From IMG/VR virus record IMGVR_UViG_3300009124_000003: DNA of 23,980 bases. One strand, given 5' to 3'. This DNA is from a virus. Position numbers and translations under genes: made by a program. The notes beneath the pieces are model-generated. The model saw only the letters and a list, made by a program, of their open reading frames with translations. It was not told the origin of the DNA and did no database searches. This document shows, piece by piece, positions 3,125 through 17,175 of this stretch (positions within the stretch are counted from its first letter, which is position 1; each line of letters opens with the position of its first letter).

Positions 3125-3189
3125 ATAAATACCTTCACGTGTAATTCTGAGATTAAACAATCTCACTGTAGGCTATCCTACGGTTCCAG

Positions 3190-3260
3190 TAGAAGCGGAA
3201 GGAATCGAACCCTCATTGAGCGGACCAGAACCGCTAGTTTTACCGTTAAACTACACTTCT
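3190..3260 (-). tRNA. tRNA-Gln(CUG), no encoded CCA
   Basis: Cloverleaf: AGAAGTG/CGCTTCT acceptor, GTTT/AAAC D-stem, AGCGG-TTCTGGT-CCGCT anticodon arm, GAGGG-TTCGATT-CCTTC T arm. Discriminator A is followed by CTG. Confidence 0.9.
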
Positions 3261-6679: not shown

Positions 6680-6756
6680 TGGCACCCTCGGCAGGACTTG
6701 AACCTGCAACCGGCGGGGTAGAAACCCGATACTCTATCCAATTGAGCTACGAGGGC
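6680..6756 (-). tRNA. tRNA-Arg(UCU), CCA encoded
   Basis: GCCCTCG/CGAGGGT acceptor plus G-CCA; anticodon loop TT-TCT-AC; T arm GCAGG-TTCAAGT-CCTGC. Confidence 0.92.
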
Positions 6757-6762
6757 AAAGAA

Positions 6763-7332
6763 CTAGTAGTCGATTCCCTTCTTAGCAGCGATACCGCTTT
6801 CATAAGCGTGCTTATGGTTACCCATGACCGTCACGGTATCTGAAATGTCCATAAGCCATTCAGGGGCGTCACGGCCAGTCAGAACCAACGAAGTGGTCTC
6901 AGGGCGGCTCTCAATGGCTGTACGGACTTCCTCAGCGTCGATCCAGCCCCAGTTGATCGGATAGGTGATCTCATCAAAAACAATAAGGCGATACTTACCA
7001 CTCTCAATAAGAGCCTTTCCCTGACGCCAAGCTTCCCTAGCTTCAGCCTCAGACTGCGACAAGTCTTCACTATCCCATGTGAAACCATCACCAAGCGACC
7101 AGAAATCAACACCCAAAGGCTCAGCCATTTTCTGTTCGCCCGTAACCCAATCAGGACTCTTCAAAAACTGAACAACAGCCACAGGCCAATCCCTGGCCCT
7201 AGCCCTAAGCATAATACCAAAAGCAGAAGAAGACTTGCCTCGGCCATCGCCCGTGTTCAATACCACAAGGCTTTTGACGTTACGCAACGTGTCTGGTCGT
7301 GGGTCTTCTTCAAGTGGTGTCAAATCATTCAT
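6763..7332 (-). CDS. cobO: ATP:cob(I)alamin adenosyltransferase (CobO/BtuR family)
   Basis: TGDGRGKSSSAFG P-loop, VVQFLKS..W.TGE, GDGFTW, FDEITYPINWGW, LVLTGR.AP, KHAYESGIAAKKGIDY. Confidence 0.95.
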   Translation of the reverse strand: MNDLTPLEEDPRPDTLRNVKSLVVLNTGDGRGKSSSAFGIMLRARARDWPVAVVQFLKSPDWVTGEQKMAEPLGVDFWSLGDGFTWDSEDLSQSEAEAREAWRQGKALIESGKYRLIVFDEITYPINWGWIDAEEVRTAIESRPETTSLVLTGRDAPEWLMDISDTVTVMGNHKHAYESGIAAKKGIDY

Positions 7333-7351: not shown

Positions 7352-7441
7352 TGGCAGAGGGTAAGGGATTCGAACCCTTGAGGGCCGTAAAACCCTACTC
7401 GCGTTCCAGGCGAGCCCATTCGTCCGCTCTGGCAACCCTCT
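7352..7441 (-). tRNA. tRNA-Ser(GGA), CCA encoded
   Basis: AGAGGGT/ACCCTCT acceptor plus G-CCA; CTCGC-CTGGAAC-GCGAG anticodon arm; long variable arm; GTTCGAATC T loop. Confidence 0.93.
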
Positions 7442-9324: not shown

Positions 9325-9549
9325 TTACGATCCTTTCCTGTCTGATTTGACCATCTCATATATTCCGCGCAAATAAACAGCGCGCAGCTCATCTTTTTCG
9401 ATGTCTTGAGGCTTCATACGCCCTTCGAACATTGAAAGCAGATATCCAAATGCAGACACGTTTGAGCTACGCAGCTCCTGCATTGCCGGTGTTTCTTTAA
9501 AAACACGTGTGTCATCGAGCATCCATGCTTTATCTTTATCATTAATCAT
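9325..9549 (-). CDS. Hypothetical protein
   Basis: ATG 9549 has a GGAGG SD and overlaps the end of the giant gene. Confidence 0.7.
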   Translation of the reverse strand: MINDKDKAWMLDDTRVFKETPAMQELRSSNVSAFGYLLSMFEGRMKPQDIEKDELRAVYLRGIYEMVKSDRKGS

Positions 9550-12500
9550 TGAGTGCCTCCAAGCGTCTTGCAGTTTCATCCAAAATATACTCTGTTCGTG
9601 CTGCGCCTTCAAGACCGATCGGCACATCTAGCGACTCAGAAATAAGCTTAGCACGTTCTGTCAGTTTATCCCAAGGCCGTTTTTCACGGTAGTCATCAGC
9701 GGACGAAATTTCGTTTGAAACAAGCATGGCAGTTCTGTTGAGCAGAATAACACGGTTATCACTGAACTGTCCGTATGAGTTCATACCATCATATCCTAGA
9801 AGGAGCGCTGCTGATGAAAGACCGTTTTTGAACTCACCATTGTTGTCTGTTGAAGCCGAACTAAGCATTAAGTCTAGCGCTTCGACAAGGTCTGCTGTTT
9901 CGGGGTTACTTGCCCACTCTCTACGAAGCATCACCAAGGGATCGTCGTCATTTGCTGACCCGGGGTTTTCTCTTTCCATCTCGTAATTTGTAACGGTTTT
10001 ACGCATCCGGTCGATTGTAGTCATGTTTGCTGATGGGCTAATCGCTCCACGAATAACACCTCCGCTCGGTCCTGCATATGTAGCAGCGTCATGTGCTGTT
10101 GTGTTTTCGTTTCTAACATTTTCTGGAGCGGCATCTCTATCAACAGCAAAGTACAAGCCAGCACCGTCAACACCTTCACCAATCGGAAGGTCTCCGTTTT
10201 CAATATGCCGCTTCTGTATCTCCACGTTACCACCACGCGAAAGCGGCACTGCTCCAGAGACGTAAATAACTTGCTCAAGCTCTTCTTCAGTAACACGCAA
10301 GTTCTTACCATCGAAGCCACGAATCTCAATCAAAGCCTCAATCAATTCACGACCCGCATAGCCCGAACCCGTTTTGCTTGTTTGATCATATTCAAGCGGC
10401 CCACCAGTCAGCGACCCCATAGTTTTTCTACGTTCACGCAGGTTCTCTAGCGCAGCAACAATAGCGGGGTTATTGCGAATAACGTCGGCAAGTTCGTCAC
10501 GATGTTCTGGACTTACCAAACTATCAGCAATCTGATGTGCCTGAACCGCAAGTTCGTCAATTTCAGCATGCCCACGGGTTACGCCTTCGACGGGTTCGTG
10601 GTCATCAACATCAATGTCGGGGTTCTTTGCTCTTGTGGCGTTTCCAACTTCTGCGGTTTTGTCTTTCAAAGCAGCAGCAGGAGTGTTTTCTGTTCGACTG
10701 CTTTCAATTCCGAAGCGCATCTCAGACTCAAGTCTTTGTAATTCTTGGATTACTTCACTTTCAATTTCTTTACGTTGTCGCACAGTTTCTTTAAGTTTTT
10801 GCTGCTGCTCTTGTAGGCGTTCAAACTTTTCTGCAAAACCGTCGGGCAGGTCTTCCACAATCCTGTCAATCTTGGCCTGCACCTCTTCAGGTGCTGGTAA
10901 TTCAGGAGCGGCTGGAGCATCGGATGGGTTTCGTGGAGGTGGACCGCCACGCCGACCTTCAGGCATTGCATTCGAAAGATCGGCAGCGAACTGTTCAAGT
11001 GTGCGTACTGTGTCGAGATCATCTAGTAGTTGTTCACGCAGCTCTTCATCAATGTCATCGAGTTCGCTGATTGCGGAACGAAGTTTGTCGAAATCGCTTG
11101 GTTCATCTTCATCAGCGAACCAGTCATCTTCTCCGCCAAGTGTGCTGGGCAGCTTCAGATAGAGGTCTGTGTCTCTTCTCGGAGTCATCAGCTCTTTAAG
11201 TGGTTGGCCATCAACCATAAAGTCTTCCCCAAGCGCATCGTAGACACGCCGCAATGGAGCCTGGCTAAGGCCGTCCTCACCAAACTGCCATCCGACTATT
11301 GAATTAGTGAGGGCTTGATAGCCGGGGTTTCCGTCAGGGCCTGTAGGCAGATTGGAAACGTCCAGGTTCGGAAAGTTTTGTTTCATTGTGGAGACGGGGT
11401 CAGCAGCTTCTGCTGTCTGGCTAGGAATCAGGTCAACATCATCTGCGACCTCAGCCACATCTTCAATGACATCATCAGAATCAATACCTATTGCTGCTCG
11501 GTTATCGTCGTTGAGACTAACTTCAAGCTTCTTGTTAATGTAATCCACGATTGCGTCTGAGCCAGGGAATTTCTTACCTTCCGTAACCCATGCGACTGCT
11601 TCAGCAAACAATTCCATACCAGCCTGGCTATCCGCGTCGTCGCCAATGTTGAACAGCTCGTCTCGTTCTCCCGTATGATTCATCCACTGCATAAGGTACT
11701 GGAAGTAGTTTTCGGTATCGTACCAATCGCTAACACCGTCGGGTGAAATCCGGTCCAGGAATCCAGACTCCTTCAGGTCTTTAAACAGCCGCTCTCGCAG
11801 TTCACGCCACTCTTCATCGTCTTCAACGTCGAGACTTCCTGCCAAAAGGTAGTGAAGTCCGTGAGCATTTTCGTGGATCAAGATGCGTTCTCTAAGTCCT
11901 TCGAGAGTAATCGCTGCGTCGTAACCGGTGTCGGGATTCTGGATGGCCCCGTCAAAAAACTCTTTCATGTTCCTTACTTCCATAAGGGGCATATTTCCAT
12001 CTGAGTTGGCCCACTTCCTGAACTCGTCAAAAGAAATGCCTTTCTCTTTGAAAATATCAGCGAAAAGTGTTGGGTGCAGGTAAATAGCGTGCTCTCCAGG
12101 CATGTAGGCTCCGCCAAACGAATTGATCTCTTCACCGCTAAGACCAGTGGGGGCGATCATAACCCTAGACGTAGAACGAAGCTCAGGGTTGATCAGGTCA
12201 AGGATTTCACTCACCTCCTTCTGGAATTCTTCGCTGTCCATCACTGCTGCGATGCCTTCAGAAATGTTAGTATCGGTCACGTCGTAAGAAGCGGTGACAG
12301 GCTCAAAATATCCATCGAGATATTCAGCGTTTTCGCCTGCGTATCGCTCGTCAAGTAGATCAATGTGTTCCTGCATGGCGGCAACGTAATGACCTAAACG
12401 AGAGTCGGGGTCAGAAATATCTATCCCATTCTCTTCTGCCCATTGAATCGTGGCGTCAAGCTGCAACTGTGCATTGTCTCGAAGGACCTTCATCTGTTCA

Positions 12501-15500
12501 GGAGAGCGGTAAACGAAACCGGAGTGCTCGCCCTTGCGGTTAGAAAGGGAATCAGCAGCACGTCCAGCATCACTAGACAAAGAGGGGTACACCTCGCTAA
12601 TCTCATCGAGAATGACGTCAGAGTCGTTGAAGTCAGAGAGTAGCTGGGAACTGCGCGAAGGCTGCCCGGGGGACGCTGGTTTGCGCGAATCGTCAGCACC
12701 TCCCAGAAGGGGACGCTGTCGCTGTTCGAATGGTATCTCCTCAAATGGTAGTGGATCATTCTCCCAATCTCGCTCGCCTCTAATATCGCGTTGGCGTTGA
12801 GCTTCTTCCTCTTCAAAACGACGCTGATTCTCGGCGTCTCGCCTGGCCCGCTCCCACTCTTCAGTCGTGATATCAATACGCTCAGGCATCGCCCCAATCC
12901 GACCATCACGATTAGGACGGTCTCCATCAAACAGCATTCCCATAATCTCGTCAATTGGATCAGGATCATCGTCAGCCAAAATCTCACGAATCGGACTATC
13001 ATCCCTAAAGCTCACAGCAAGTCTACGAATTTCGTCTTCTTTTTCCTTAGAAAAACGATTGTGCGGAGCACGAGCAGGTCGATAAAAGCCCTCATACCTA
13101 CTACCGTCATTCATGTCAAGATCCCCACCAGGGTCCCTGTTAAACTCATAACGCAACCCGACACCATTACCAATCATGATGTCTGAATCAATGTCTCCGT
13201 CACCTGCGGGCTCATAACCCTCCATCAAACGATGAAGCTCTCGCACGTCATCTTCCCAAGTGTCTTGTCGTGGGAAATAAACCGTTACGCCTTTTCCGCG
13301 TTGACGCCTGTTACGGGGGTCAAAATCATTAGTTGCATCCCAGAACGACTCTTCAGCGATCTTCATACCCCATCCTCGTTCGACAGCGGTATCGTAGATT
13401 CGGTCCAAAACTTCGTCTACTTCAGCGTCGGACGTAGAATAAACGTGTCCTTTGTAACCAGAATTTGTTTTCGGGTAAAGCATCTGTTGGAAATCAACTC
13501 CGTAAGGAAGTGGCTTGCGTTCCCAGTTTCTACCTTCAGGAACAACCCTTTCAGGAAGGTCGGCGGCAGGTGTCTCCGCCGCTGCTTCCGGGTGACCAGG
13601 ATCGTAAGGCTGAAGATCACGCATACCCACGTCACGAATGTTTCGACCGTTGATCGAAATGTAATCGTTCGGGATAGGCTTCGTTAGGACAATAGACTGT
13701 TCAGTCACTCCCGTAATGTCATAAAACGCATCTGACGCAAACACAGACCCGCCAAGCCGCTCTGACAGATCCCTTACTACCTGCCCTTCAAACAACAAAG
13801 GCTCAGGTGACAGATCTTCAGCAACAATCGCTCCGTCGTCCAATGCTCGTCCTAGATCAATTTCTAGAAGAGCCGTGGGCTGTTCGTTGCCGTCGGCGTC
13901 AAGGTGAGGGTCTGCAAAATGGTCAATCTCGGCACGAGACTCACTCAAGAAAACGGCGTCACCGATACCTTGATTGCTGTCCACTCTACTAACAGTGCGA
14001 GGTACCAGGCCTTCATTTCGGATTGAGTCAATCGTTTCAGCGACTGGCTGAGCCGGGTTGGGTTCGTCGTCCCTGAGGCCCTGAAGTGAGCGCCCGTAGT
14101 TGTTGTCAAAGTTTCGTACAGCGTGCCAAGCACGGCCACGGCTAGCAACGCCTCGACGCCACCTGGAAGTGCGTGCTTCCACTTCTGTTTGTACAAGTTG
14201 GCTAGATCCGACTTCGCGCACGCTTAGGCGACGGATAGTTGATCCGCCGTCGGGTCCTTCTTCAACGGTAAAGAAAATGCGGTCATCGTAAGGATCGTCA
14301 ACGTCCCCTCTGAGCACTCCTAGACTCTTTCCGCCATCATAATCAGTCATGCCGAAACCAGCAGACTCCATATGGGCACGGACTTCATCGGGCGACTGAG
14401 GAACATTCTTTTCGTTAGAAGAACCCACAAACAACTTATCAGGTGCGTCAGGCAAGGGAGGAGCTTCGCCTTCATCGTGGCCAGGGTTACCGGTTGAGAA
14501 GTTGTCACGGATCTCACGGTAACGCTGCTCTTCAGCTTCACGCAGCATAGCGCCGAACTGTGGGCCAGGCTTAATGCCTTGGTCCTGCAATTCGTTAGCT
14601 GTCAACGCAGGCGGAGCGTCCGCAAACTGAAGGAACGGCTCAATGTCGTCTTCGGTCTCAGGCTGCACCCGGTGGAACGCCCGCATATCATCACCCGAAA
14701 CACGACGGTTCTTGCCGAACTTGTTCTTCAAAGTAGCTACATTACCATCGTTAATGCTGCGGGCCTGCATAATCAGTTCCACGTCAGCAATTTCGTCGTT
14801 TGTGAACTTACGGTCCTTCAATACGGTCTTTACATCTTCAATGTCGTTGTCAGCCAGCAGTGAAGCAACCAAGGCCGCACGGTTACTGTAAGAACCGTCA
14901 TCGGGCAAACGATCTGGGCTTACGTTCAGACCAGGGAACACCTGCCCCCACACGGCACCGGTACCGTTATCAACAATGTCGATTTGGCGAATGTACCCAG
15001 AAGGAGAAACAGCCGAGTCAATGCCTCGAACAAACTCATCTCGGACACGCTCACCCGACACACCACGCAACGCCGAGTTAGCTCGGATAGCGTCAACCGT
15101 GGCAGAGTCCATGCCCCAGCCGGTACGGCCAGAGAAACGGAACGCACGAAGGATTCGCAGCGGGTCTTCACGGAAACGCTCTGCCGGGTCACCGACAGCA
15201 CGAACAACACCGTTCTCGATGTCATCAATGCCTCCAACGTAATCCACGATCTCGTTAGTGGAGAGGTCGTAGAAGAGAGCGTTCATGGTGAGATCACGAC
15301 GACGCACGTCTTCGTCAATCGTGGTGAACTCGACTTCGTCGGGGCGGCGACCTTCGCCAACGTCACGTCGGAAGGTTGCGATCTCGTACTCTTCGCCGTC
15401 GGGCATGTTGACGCGCACAACCGCAAAGTCTTTACCGGTCAGGTCCAGGCGAGCGCCCGGAACGTCAGCAAGCATGGCTTCGATTTCGTCTGGTGTGGCG

Positions 15501-17149
15501 TTCGAAGCGAGGTCGTAATCTTTGATTTTTCGACCCATCAGGGTGTCACGAACAGCGCCCCCGACAAGGTAAAGCTCGAATCCCGCAGCGTCGAATCGTT
15601 CCTTGATCGGATCAAGGCTATCAGGGGTTGGGATATTGGCTTCACGACGGACCGGCTCAGGAGCAGCTTCTGTGTCAACACGAACATCGCCGTAAACGTG
15701 AACTTGAGAAGCTTTAACAAAGCGGCCAGTCTCCGGGTCACGCACAGTATGAGGCGTGAAAGTAACGGCGGCGCCCGTAGCGATGTTGTCGGTAGGTACT
15801 TCGACTACGTCTGCAAACGGAAGTTCTGGGTTTTTATTTTGAACAATAAAGCGGCCAGTGTTTGGATCGCGCAAAGTGTGAGGTTTGAAATCAGGGTCAA
15901 GTGCTTGACCGAACGTACTTTGCAACTGTGTATTAATTTTGCCCAATTCTTCGTCAGTCGGACGATCCTTACCGTAGCCTTTAAAGTTTCCATACAGCCA
16001 CTGACTAAAAGAGCTGTACTCTTCCCTAAGCTGCCCAAGGGGAGTCTCAACAGGAACATCAGCAATGTCAAACAGCGCTTCTTGAGTATCGTCAGCGTCA
16101 TCACGATCAAGCCACGCAGCAAGGCCAGGGTTGCGCGCCCTAAATGCCGACTCCACAAGGTTACCAAACCCGCGCGGGTAGTTGATAATTTCAGGAGCTT
16201 CTGCTGGCCTGTCGCCAACCTTGCGACCACCGTAAAGATCGCCCGCCTCTAGCCAAGCCTCCCACGTGTAACCGTTTTTCACCCAATGCTCATTGATTTT
16301 ATCTTGACGAATTTCGTCCAAAACCATGTCAAAGTCGTAGCCTCTTTCCAGCCAAGATTCCCTTGTCCAGCCTTCACTTTCCAACCACGCATCAATTTCA
16401 GCTTCTCTCCGCGGGGCCGCCTCTGCTTCAACTAGATCTTCCCAGGCTTGCAGGGCGTCTTGACGAGTAACATACGCTGTCACCTTCTTTGAATCGTCAT
16501 CAGCACGAACAACTTGCAAGTCTCGATGGGCATTAGGATTAGGGCTAGGGATAAATAGTGTTTCAGGCAGTCGTGGGTCAGTTGGCGAAATGGGCGTTTC
16601 ATTCTTTGGTAGAAGTAGACCGTTAGCGTTGGTCGCCCAATGTGCCTCAGCTTCCCGCCGACCAGGGAACGGGAAACCAGCGTGGTCCAAAGCCTCTACT
16701 CCGTGGAAGCGGCGGTCGTCAGGAACAAACACACGCAGCGGTTTGCCGTCTTTATCGACATCCGTGGCTCGTAGCACGAGCATGTCGCGCTTAGGGGCCG
16801 GAGGCGGTCCGTCTAGATTGCCGAACAGCGAACCGATTGTGCCGCCGACACGGTCACCAATAGTTCCGTTCTGCTCACGCGCAGATAGAGTACCGCCGCT
16901 CCAAGACTGGCGGTAAGGGACAGGGCGTCCTTCTCTGTCTACGATTAGAGTGTTGCGGGTGTCCTGAATGCTGGTGCCAGGGGTTCCAAGTCCAAGCTCC
17001 AGGCCAGTTAGGGCGCTAACAATGCGCGTTCCTGCCGGACGCTCAAAAAGCGTCCCTTCCTGAACAATGCCGTCGTTATCAGCATCAGGAGAGTCTGGAT
17101 TGTAAGGGTCTGGGCGAATGCCGCCCCATCTTGGTGATCCAATAGCCAT
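9542..17149 (-). CDS. 2535-aa polyvalent protein: CCA-adding nucleotidyltransferase, Tpt1/KptA-like ART, phosphothreonine-lyase-like domain, zincin peptidase and C-terminal ART
   Basis: Single uninterrupted ORF. CCA: VGGAVRD..DYD, EDVRRRDLTMNA, RFREDPLRILRAFRF, GIKPGPQFG. ART1: WHA..SIRNEGLVP..VFLS..LLEID..IP..YI. Lyase-like: GYKGHVYS..K..GKGVTVYFP..SD..LRY. Zincin: HENAH..ELFAEA. ART2: GAGLYFA..A.TYA..GYDG..VILLNR. Confidence 0.9.
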   Translation of the reverse strand: MAIGSPRWGGIRPDPYNPDSPDADNDGIVQEGTLFERPAGTRIVSALTGLELGLGTPGTSIQDTRNTLIVDREGRPVPYRQSWSGGTLSAREQNGTIGDRVGGTIGSLFGNLDGPPPAPKRDMLVLRATDVDKDGKPLRVFVPDDRRFHGVEALDHAGFPFPGRREAEAHWATNANGLLLPKNETPISPTDPRLPETLFIPSPNPNAHRDLQVVRADDDSKKVTAYVTRQDALQAWEDLVEAEAAPRREAEIDAWLESEGWTRESWLERGYDFDMVLDEIRQDKINEHWVKNGYTWEAWLEAGDLYGGRKVGDRPAEAPEIINYPRGFGNLVESAFRARNPGLAAWLDRDDADDTQEALFDIADVPVETPLGQLREEYSSFSQWLYGNFKGYGKDRPTDEELGKINTQLQSTFGQALDPDFKPHTLRDPNTGRFIVQNKNPELPFADVVEVPTDNIATGAAVTFTPHTVRDPETGRFVKASQVHVYGDVRVDTEAAPEPVRREANIPTPDSLDPIKERFDAAGFELYLVGGAVRDTLMGRKIKDYDLASNATPDEIEAMLADVPGARLDLTGKDFAVVRVNMPDGEEYEIATFRRDVGEGRRPDEVEFTTIDEDVRRRDLTMNALFYDLSTNEIVDYVGGIDDIENGVVRAVGDPAERFREDPLRILRAFRFSGRTGWGMDSATVDAIRANSALRGVSGERVRDEFVRGIDSAVSPSGYIRQIDIVDNGTGAVWGQVFPGLNVSPDRLPDDGSYSNRAALVASLLADNDIEDVKTVLKDRKFTNDEIADVELIMQARSINDGNVATLKNKFGKNRRVSGDDMRAFHRVQPETEDDIEPFLQFADAPPALTANELQDQGIKPGPQFGAMLREAEEQRYREIRDNFSTGNPGHDEGEAPPLPDAPDKLFVGSSNEKNVPQSPDEVRAHMESAGFGMTDYDGGKSLGVLRGDVDDPYDDRIFFTVEEGPDGGSTIRRLSVREVGSSQLVQTEVEARTSRWRRGVASRGRAWHAVRNFDNNYGRSLQGLRDDEPNPAQPVAETIDSIRNEGLVPRTVSRVDSNQGIGDAVFLSESRAEIDHFADPHLDADGNEQPTALLEIDLGRALDDGAIVAEDLSPEPLLFEGQVVRDLSERLGGSVFASDAFYDITGVTEQSIVLTKPIPNDYISINGRNIRDVGMRDLQPYDPGHPEAAAETPAADLPERVVPEGRNWERKPLPYGVDFQQMLYPKTNSGYKGHVYSTSDAEVDEVLDRIYDTAVERGWGMKIAEESFWDATNDFDPRNRRQRGKGVTVYFPRQDTWEDDVRELHRLMEGYEPAGDGDIDSDIMIGNGVGLRYEFNRDPGGDLDMNDGSRYEGFYRPARAPHNRFSKEKEDEIRRLAVSFRDDSPIREILADDDPDPIDEIMGMLFDGDRPNRDGRIGAMPERIDITTEEWERARRDAENQRRFEEEEAQRQRDIRGERDWENDPLPFEEIPFEQRQRPLLGGADDSRKPASPGQPSRSSQLLSDFNDSDVILDEISEVYPSLSSDAGRAADSLSNRKGEHSGFVYRSPEQMKVLRDNAQLQLDATIQWAEENGIDISDPDSRLGHYVAAMQEHIDLLDERYAGENAEYLDGYFEPVTASYDVTDTNISEGIAAVMDSEEFQKEVSEILDLINPELRSTSRVMIAPTGLSGEEINSFGGAYMPGEHAIYLHPTLFADIFKEKGISFDEFRKWANSDGNMPLMEVRNMKEFFDGAIQNPDTGYDAAITLEGLRERILIHENAHGLHYLLAGSLDVEDDEEWRELRERLFKDLKESGFLDRISPDGVSDWYDTENYFQYLMQWMNHTGERDELFNIGDDADSQAGMELFAEAVAWVTEGKKFPGSDAIVDYINKKLEVSLNDDNRAAIGIDSDDVIEDVAEVADDVDLIPSQTAEAADPVSTMKQNFPNLDVSNLPTGPDGNPGYQALTNSIVGWQFGEDGLSQAPLRRVYDALGEDFMVDGQPLKELMTPRRDTDLYLKLPSTLGGEDDWFADEDEPSDFDKLRSAISELDDIDEELREQLLDDLDTVRTLEQFAADLSNAMPEGRRGGPPPRNPSDAPAAPELPAPEEVQAKIDRIVEDLPDGFAEKFERLQEQQQKLKETVRQRKEIESEVIQELQRLESEMRFGIESSRTENTPAAALKDKTAEVGNATRAKNPDIDVDDHEPVEGVTRGHAEIDELAVQAHQIADSLVSPEHRDELADVIRNNPAIVAALENLRERRKTMGSLTGGPLEYDQTSKTGSGYAGRELIEALIEIRGFDGKNLRVTEEELEQVIYVSGAVPLSRGGNVEIQKRHIENGDLPIGEGVDGAGLYFAVDRDAAPENVRNENTTAHDAATYAGPSGGVIRGAISPSANMTTIDRMRKTVTNYEMERENPGSANDDDPLVMLRREWASNPETADLVEALDLMLSSASTDNNGEFKNGLSSAALLLGYDGMNSYGQFSDNRVILLNRTAMLVSNEISSADDYREKRPWDKLTERAKLISESLDVPIGLEGAARTEYILDETARRLEALND

Positions 17150-17175
17150 CAGTACCGGTATCCTGCGATAGTCAT
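17149..17175 (-). CDS. Putative leaderless uORF MTIAGYRY coupled to the giant gene
   Basis: ATG is 6 nt after the -10 TAAAAT; its TGA shares the A of the giant gene ATG (TGATG). Confidence 0.55.
   Translation of the reverse strand: MTIAGYRY

Follow-up and report, generated by a model that had tools for sequence, protein, structure and literature searches.

A CCA-type tRNA nucleotidyltransferase module beside an ADP-ribosyltransferase-fold domain in a polyvalent protein of an estuarine phage

Introduction

The window analysed here, a stretch of 23,980 nucleotides (nt) of the IMG/VR record IMGVR_UViG_3300009124_000003 from an estuarine phage, raises the question of whether a phage CCA-adding domain and the Tpt1/KptA-like domain which follows it form a dedicated pair for the repair of tRNA ends, as had been proposed in an earlier note on this DNA. 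Both domains (aa 505-1167) were found to lie inside one open reading frame (ORF), 9542-17149(-), whose product of 2535 amino acids (aa) is named P0001 and gives all aa numbers below. It appears fairly probable that they are two adjacent modules of one phage polyvalent protein, the first being a likely full-CCA nucleotidyltransferase and the second a separately exchangeable, predicted NAD+-dependent ADP-ribosyltransferase (ART) with a target of its own. In the labels used, P-numbers denote long relative proteins, L-numbers viral loci or contigs and X-numbers sequencing runs.

9542..17149, minus strand: phage polyvalent (multi-enzyme) protein P0001, a single ORF of 2535 aa, most or all of which is covered by relatives P0002-P0006

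Organisation of the polyvalent protein

P0001 joins domains with widely differing activities in a single long chain, these being in order an N-terminal tag, two regions without assignment that bear two RDPxTGRF repeats, the CCA module (511-885), a small N-module (900-1000), the ART-fold domain ART1 (1001-1175), a RamC_N-like domain (1200-1375), a zincin motif at 1759 and a second ART-like domain, ART2 (2255-2485). The two domains first described are parts of one ORF with four more recognisable modules and have a 100-aa module (aa 900-1000) between them. The fusion of CCA and ART1 is not an assembly artefact, because a single gap-free contig from the independent run X5 bridges positions 12996-15388, spanning CCA, ART1 and the next domain. 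The window was found in 20 listed runs from 17 studies, and the nine runs sharing at least half of its words are estuary metagenomes, two of which may be its source.

The CCA module

14495..15619, minus strand: class II tRNA nucleotidyltransferase, head to tail, aa 511-885 (PF01743, E-value 7e-34; phrog_2244, E-value 5e-55; best PDB match a CCA-adding enzyme, E-value 3e-39)
15512-15562, minus strand: motif A, aa 530-546, with the catalytic DYD (DxD) at aa 544-546
15332-15370, minus strand: B/A motif (R594-x-D596) and flexible loop
15293-15301, minus strand: motif B, RRD at aa 617-619, within EDVRRRD (613-619)
15155-15169, minus strand: template motif D, EDPLR (EDxxR), aa 661-665
15035-15052, minus strand: ERxxxE, aa 700-705

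On inspection of the sequence, motifs A, B, D and E are all intact in this module, including the catalytic DYD on which the earlier note had relied. The EDxxRRD motif that it called templating is also intact, as EDVRRRD, but is motif B by the definitions of PMC2910056 and PMC7014341, the template being motif D, EDPLR. As had been noted, the poly(A) polymerase signature G[RK][RK]F is absent from aa 546-600, where GKDF is found instead. ERxxxE as opposed to sRxxxE is reported to separate CC- and CCA-adding enzymes from the A-adding and poly(A) polymerase types (PMC2910056), and these motifs together support the assignment of the module as a class II tRNA nucleotidyltransferase and not a poly(A) polymerase. 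Comparison with the locus L202 gave ratios of nonsynonymous to synonymous substitution rates (dN/dS) of 0.02 for the head and neck and 0.05 for the body and tail, which is strong purifying selection on the module.

The flexible loop (DVGEGRRPDEV), present as quoted earlier, had been considered short and lacking the usual Tyr. It is two residues shorter than that of Planococcus Cca, but aligns without gaps with human TRNT1, which also has no Tyr there, and Tyr is described as not invariant across the loop families (PMC7014341). Counted from the aspartate of the B/A motif, Arg602 takes the position of human R105, mutation of which is reported to lower A-addition 77-fold (PMC2910056). Among 69 unique viral relatives, R[RK]P is kept in 66 and the same short loop in 54, with a Tyr within the first six positions in just four. 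The flexible-loop deletion that is the hallmark of bacterial CC-adding enzymes is not seen, the loop being of human length. CC-only activity, which had been raised as possible, now seems unlikely because loop length, B/A motif, Arg602 and ERxxxE are all as expected of an enzyme that adds the whole CCA, and the module likely builds the full CCA end of tRNAs.

A scan of viral contigs gave 365 relatives of this CCA domain, and the figures on solo genes, loci and nearby tRNAs come from the best 80 of these. Solo genes predominate (64 of 78 complete ORFs are at most 480 aa), tRNA genes are present in 43 of the 80 loci, with five or more in 31, and a second CCA-like ORF was found in none of the 80, the loci extending to at most ~21 kb. 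The best matches in cultured phages are 25-42% identical to the module. A quick tree, holding 81 of 161 rows after dereplication, was used only to name the nearest relatives.

Other long fusions of the same clade carry HD, 2H, Pnk-like, GNAT, DEDDh, kinase, topoisomerase IB and ART-PolyVal domains. A second large fusion group (P0011-P0071, P0081) joins the clade to HD, cytidylyltransferase-like, 2H/Acb1 and Pnk-like domains, with P0081 combining RNA ligase, CCA, HAD and 2H; these proteins are better candidates for dedicated RNA-repair kits than the window's protein. A DEDDh 3'-exonuclease is joined to this clade in L001:8420-11020 and in P0010, which may pair trimming with subsequent tailing.

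ART1 and its N-module

14150..14452, minus strand: small alpha/beta N-module, aa 900-1000, between CCA and ART1, which travels with ART1 and is not the winged-helix RNA lobe of Tpt1
13625..14149, minus strand: ART-fold domain ART1, aa 1001-1175, resembling the NAD+ lobe of Tpt1, with H1009 kept and the Thr of HGT and the strand-2 His replaced

All of the ART-like motifs quoted for the second domain were found. A model of aa 895-1185 was built from a nine-row alignment, with a predicted local distance difference test score (pLDDT) of 77. When it was compared using VIA-align, three Tpt1/KptA chains ranked 1-3 (Z 8.3, 6.8 and 6.4), followed by TreX and other ARTs; the top match of this predicted structure, to residues 86-180 of KptA 9ld3, has a Z of 8.3 and a root-mean-square deviation of 3.1 over 94 aligned residues. 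As modelled, then, the ART fold and its best match to Tpt1/KptA are real. However, every structural match to Tpt1 begins at the NAD+ lobe, with the Tpt1 chains aligning to ART1 only from residue 86 onward. The N-module is modelled as a strand, a helix and four strands, and aligns to no part of Tpt1, matching only START/KA1-type sheets at Z <4. The Arg-His-Arg of the Tpt1 RNA lobe is also missing, with no RH, LRH or KxRF in the 140 aa upstream in all five CCA-adjacent copies, and no conserved Arg-His is present among ten N-modules compared, all ten of which are acidic. The Tpt1-like reading of the second domain is thus retained for its fold, while Tpt1 function is unsupported, since the match is confined to the NAD+ lobe and there is no RNA lobe, which in Tpt1 holds three of the four catalytic residues. 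ART1 is not a member of the Tpt1 family.

Within the NAD+ lobe, alignment of nine copies (A2) places HAV in the window copy at the position of HGT and a Phe at that of the strand-2 His, and so the H-H-h triad with Hx[S/T] (PMC8120803) of Tpt1 is incomplete. HAV, together with an insert of 17-24 residues, is shared by the four CCA-adjacent copies aligned, the five others having HGT or HST. A His, an Arg, an Asn and a Glu are invariant in all nine; the invariant Arg1055 lies in the loop of the distal tetrad Arg of the Tpt1 NAD+ lobe, where the alignment is gapped. The dN/dS of ART1 is 0.12, indicating purifying selection.

The window copy has no match to PF01885, which its relatives match weakly (E-value ~1e-3, positions 87-164), and hhalign of the ART1 family against the true phage Tpt1 of L310 covered only residues 97-137 of the latter. 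Foldseek found nothing at an E-value of 0.001 or better in PDB or BFVD, Tpt1 in PDB being at 0.12, and ESM Atlas places the domain near PARP and Tox-ART-HYD1 clusters, these being leads only. As a single query against viral contigs ART1 returned nothing, a standalone search with P0086 gave one relative, alignment A2 offered no stretch suited to scanning loci, and a search of 1.84 billion representatives gave six matches, one spurious; P0084 was discarded as a repeat-rich false match. The N-modules of the two ART1 subgroups matched weakly when their profiles were compared (probability 1.5%), and their homology is only suggested. ART1 can be regarded as a small unannotated family between Tpt1 and the toxin-type ARTs.

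Gain and loss of modules among relatives

Whether CCA and ART1 belong together was examined in 80 long proteins with this CCA domain. ART1 is carried by five (P0002, P0003, P0005, P0006, P0008), always together with the N-module, and is absent from the other 75; P0002 is identical to the window over CCA and ART1 and is not independent. P0004, with a CCA module 92% identical, passes directly from CCA to the lyase-like (RamC_N-like) domain, while L203 (91% identical, with the same downstream genes at 90-97%) passes from CCA to the zincin region, neither having ART1. It is also missing from P0007, P0009, P0010, L001 and L017, and after CCA the lyase-like domain is found in seven relatives against ART1 in five. 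Conversely, in P0003 and P0008 a second copy of ART1 lies over 1,200 residues away from CCA, and ART1 occurs without CCA in five proteins (P0082, P0083, P0085, P0086, P0087). Among 160 CCA loci a clear ART1 was seen only in L202.

Of 20 contigs that encode this CCA clade, one also has a true Tpt1, in a gene of its own ~154 kb from the CCA gene. This gene, L310:1405-2019, is complete and two-lobed and lies on a 619-kb phage contig.

The proposed dedicated pair is not supported, because ART1 is missing from P0004, L203 and 75 of the 80 long fusions and its second copies lie far from CCA. The arrangement is one of module shuffling, described as typical of polyvalent proteins (PMC5512222).

tRNA genes and their 3' ends

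3189..3260, minus strand: tRNA-Gln(CTG), encoding A73-C74 and then TG, which would need C75 and A76 added
6680..6756, minus strand: tRNA-Arg(TCT), CCA encoded
7352..7441, minus strand: tRNA-Ser(GGA), CCA encoded

As stated in the earlier note, tRNA-Arg and tRNA-Ser encode CCA and tRNA-Gln does not, although the latter is encoded to C74. Its gene lies ~11 kb from the CCA domain, and a tRNA of this kind is not specific evidence for such an enzyme because T4, which has no PF01743 match, has four of eight tRNA genes without CCA, two of them ending in C only. C-only genes also occur in complete control contigs without the enzyme, such as L157 and L122.

Near genes of the CCA clade, ARAGORN called 431 tRNAs, and 307 unique genes were left after 47 that could not be anchored were dropped. 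These comprise 268 with C74 only, three with CC, 25 with CCA and 11 with none, and position 76 is an A in 219. The discriminator identities are C for His, G for Trp and U for Cys; the discriminators of the set fit these, and the register is therefore correct. A viral control set, picked by pattern (336 called, 37 dropped, 233 unique), contained 131 with CCA, 60 C-only, three CC and 39 with none. The clade loci are related, and Fisher tests were set aside for this reason; at 70% identity there are 13 clusters with three or more tRNAs, of which 11 are mostly C-only and two mostly CCA. The metagenome set is mixed, with 27 CCA and 26 C-only among 57, and on the contig of L017, a fusion in a head module, nine of 12 anchored tRNAs are C-only. 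The tRNA-Gln of the window fits the C74-only pattern of the clade, whose genes offer a ready substrate set for assay; tRNA genes of chloroplasts encoded to C74 are reported to be completed by a nucleotidyltransferase (PMC3161902).

The C74-only arrays, found around solo CCA genes (L002-L080), mostly belong to one related group of large phages, many with CTA-anticodon tRNAs and a transfer-messenger RNA. A phage RNase Z-like partner for such genes was rejected as a general feature, PF12706 being matched in one of 21 such contigs.

The N-terminal tag

17030..17137, minus strand: N-terminal tag (D.D.DG..QEGT..ERP), aa 5-40, a candidate virion-loading signal

This stretch of 35 residues is kept in P0002-P0006; annotated phages gave no match to it, and here it carries no name from Pfam or PHROG. 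The first 40 residues of P0001 recur at the start of proteins of 1710 and 1174 aa whose genes are flanked by neck genes and the gene of the tail sheath (L282-L284; tag at L282:8716 and L284:8486), and at the start of the gene that follows the prohead-protease cluster in L001 (L001:7546). A related stretch lies inside a protein of L285/L287 that is fused to the prohead protease (L285:8363-11020), and P0083 has a variant. The tag-bearing proteins of L282 and L284 carry a DEDDh exonuclease and no CCA. The next closest CCA fusions, L001 and L017, are located in head modules (portal, protease and major head genes) beside a 2H-type protein. Taken together, the distribution of the tag and the placement of L001 and L017 suggest a loading signal. 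Proximity to virion genes, which is typical of polyvalent genes but not absolute, is seen in L001, L017 and L282-L284 and not in the window, and whether P0001 itself is packaged is close to evenly balanced, since its gene follows the primase as in L202.

Other modules and gene neighbourhood

13025..13552, minus strand: RamC/LanKC N-terminal (lyase-like) domain, aa 1200-1375 (PF25816, 33.6 bits against a cut-off of 27; NF038151, E-value 3e-4)
11525..12292, minus strand: predicted zincin-like metallopeptidase region, by motif only (HExxH, aa 1759-1763, and a downstream Glu motif)
9695..10387, minus strand: second ART-like domain ART2, aa 2255-2485, ART-PolyVal-like, a lead only (ESM Atlas 0.93, 181 shared features; PF18760 on 35% of cluster members)

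The model of the lyase-like domain is of low confidence (pLDDT 47) with only generic ferredoxin-like fold matches, and no homologues of near its length were found; P0007 also carries a HipA-like kinase domain. The zincin region has no Pfam or NCBIfam match. Co-existing strains (runs X5 and X11) replace 1.2 kb of it (11483-12689) with other sequence, and P0003-P0006 are only ~25% identical to the window in this part. ART2 has no Pfam match. The RDPxTGRF repeats lie at 15719-15742 and 15848-15871, just upstream of the CCA domain, and are kept in P0002, P0005 and P0006.

Upstream of the P0001 gene are genes for a primase-helicase, a single-stranded DNA-binding protein and a DNA methylase; downstream are those for a glycosyltransferase, CobA, the three tRNAs, ThyX and an SNF2 helicase. 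CobA (6763-7332) is a phage ATP:corrinoid adenosyltransferase (NF004637, above cut-off), lies between two tRNA genes and is 97% identical in L203. An RNA run from a related strain yielded contigs across 13307-17158, which are no proof of transcription and may reflect DNA carry-over, and a promoter site at 17211-17182 was discounted as evidence, the scan having given six sites against 5.5 expected. Positions 1-1135 of the window are GC-rich (74% in the first kb), with long plus-strand open frames and no Pfam or PHROG match.

Proposed roles and alternative explanations

In the polyvalent protein as favoured here, the CCA module would use CTP and ATP on tRNAs with a 3'-OH, finishing phage tRNAs such as tRNA-Gln, and may also refill eroded 3' ends of host or phage tRNAs. 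ART1 would most likely mono-ADP-ribosylate a host macromolecule, or else consume NAD+; its target is probably a protein, because the partner lobe formed by the N-module is acidic, and is likely to be its own and not the substrate of the CCA enzyme. The zincin would cleave the chain into its modules and the tag would load the chain into the head. Several observations weigh against this picture. The CCA domain lies below every curated NCBIfam cut-off (best 191 of 290 bits), and the evidence for the zincin is a motif and that for ART2 an Atlas lead. ART1 adjoins CCA in five relatives down to 49% CCA identity, so some linkage persists, while HAV in place of HGT in the CCA-adjacent copies means that NAD+ binding may be altered. 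Eukaryotic CC-adding enzymes with a full-length loop are described, so loop length does not exclude CC-only activity (PMC7014341). The P0001 gene also stands after that of the primase-helicase, within a cluster for replication and metabolism, in an order common to L202 and L203 and unlike the usual place of virion-borne polyvalent genes.

A dedicated two-step pair, in which ART1 and the N-module would heal a phosphorylated tRNA end with NAD+, the CCA would be rebuilt and host tRNA toxins would be reversed, could draw on the best fold match being Tpt1/KptA, on the weak PF01885 matches, on the terminal 2'-phosphate that some Tpt1 enzymes are reported to remove (PMC10622864), on the N-module, which sits where Tpt1 has its RNA lobe and is always found with ART1, and on purifying selection in ART1. 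It is highly improbable given that the winged-helix RNA lobe and a conserved Arg-His are lacking, the N-modules are acidic, ART1 has been lost in orthologues 91-92% identical and true Tpt1 is a rare, separate and distant gene in this clade. Degeneration of the CCA-adjacent ART1 into a non-catalytic NAD+- or protein-binding domain is unlikely, if less so; the change to HAV removes the Hx[S/T] alcohol, which contacts the NAD+ ribose (PMC8120803), and comes with the insert, but the four invariant residues and the dN/dS of 0.12 argue against it. Partial activity of the nucleotidyltransferase, either CC-only or limited to C75 and A76 to match tRNA genes encoded to C74, with host enzymes doing the rest, is likewise improbable. 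The shorter, Tyr-less loop, the loop-intact eukaryotic CC-adders and the 268 of 307 clade genes with C74 alone are consistent with it, but the loop has human length with an Arg at the R105 position, the B/A motif and ERxxxE are present, and C74-only genes need both C and A in loci where no partner enzyme was found (80 of 80, at most ~21 kb).

It is possible, though rather doubtful, that P0001 is an early or middle intracellular enzyme scaffold which is never packaged, its CCA module only maturing phage tRNAs and its tag being left over from a head-module ancestor. Its gene lies on the same strand between the primase-helicase and the glycosyltransferase, CobA, tRNA and ThyX genes, in an order kept in L202 and L203, and the RNA-run contigs reach across 13307-17158 with the reservation on DNA carry-over given above; against this, the tag is kept in P0002-P0006 and heads proteins in head and tail modules elsewhere, and portal, protease and major head genes surround the nearest other CCA fusions, L001 and L017. 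A bolder extension of the polyvalent reading, which we regard as a long shot, is that the tag loads the chain into the head and a CCA-adding enzyme thus comes into the cell along with the DNA, where it would mend tRNA 3' ends that host defence had damaged ahead of the translation of any phage gene, with ART1 founding a new Tpt1-derived ART family in which the RNA lobe was swapped for another substrate lobe, maybe still acting on phosphorylated RNA ends. If the chain is packaged, it becomes testable whether phages pre-load tRNA-end repair against defences that block translation.

Comparison with known systems

CCA enzymes and KptA have been described for jumbo phages (PMC7824862; PMC9503650; PMC7162821). 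Both phage CCA enzymes and polyvalent proteins are known, but their fusion was not found in the literature searched: keyword searches, which did not cover supplements, brought up no paper that describes a CCA domain within a polyvalent protein, and the main text of PMC5512222 makes no mention of CCA, Tpt1 or KptA, although its online supplements, outside that search, may list such fusions. Like the phage polyvalent proteins of that study, P0001 strings unrelated enzymatic domains together in a large chain, among them a predicted zincin with an HExxH motif and a putative ART-PolyVal-like domain, and its modules shuffle between close relatives. It differs in that the Pol-beta nucleotidyltransferases described there are minimal domains of firmicute elements, and in that its gene lies among replication genes and not virion genes.

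The CCA module shares motifs A, B, D and E, the B/A motif, the loop and ERxxxE with class II CCA enzymes (Planococcus halocryophilus 6ibp; human TRNT1 4x4w/8cbm; phage phrog_2244), as well as a head-to-tail length of ~375 aa with no HD domain. Unlike these it is embedded in a 2535-aa chain, and the phage clade of which it is part has a short hGxGRRP loop. The tRNA-Gln gene of the window ends after C74 as do chloroplast genes (PMC3161902) and T4 tRNA-Pro and tRNA-Gln; what differs from those cases is that C74-only ends are close to uniform across the tRNA arrays that surround a single phage CCA clade.

ART1 and Tpt1/KptA (9ld3, 6e3a, 7kw9; PF01885) have in common the fold of the NAD+ lobe, the first-strand His, the SI...GL helix-turn, the second-strand V.LS and the terminal IP motif. 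They differ in that ART1 has no N-terminal winged-helix RNA lobe, Arg-His or second Arg, is preceded by a different alpha/beta module and has a Phe for the strand-2 His and a Val for the Thr of HGT. CC0527/DUF952 (2jqn) and the Rhs C-terminal ARTs TreX (8s2m) and TreTu (7zhl) have, like ART1, a minimal ART fold without an RNA lobe (Z 4.6-6.2), and with this precedent of single-lobe Tpt1-like ARTs the fold need not act in tRNA repair; ART1 is 10-14% identical to these and has its own N-module and a helical insert. Set against these systems, P0001 has a real and intact CCA-adding module, probably one for the full CCA, carried in a shuffled polyvalent protein beside an unassigned ART which resembles a lobe of Tpt1 and is not Tpt1.

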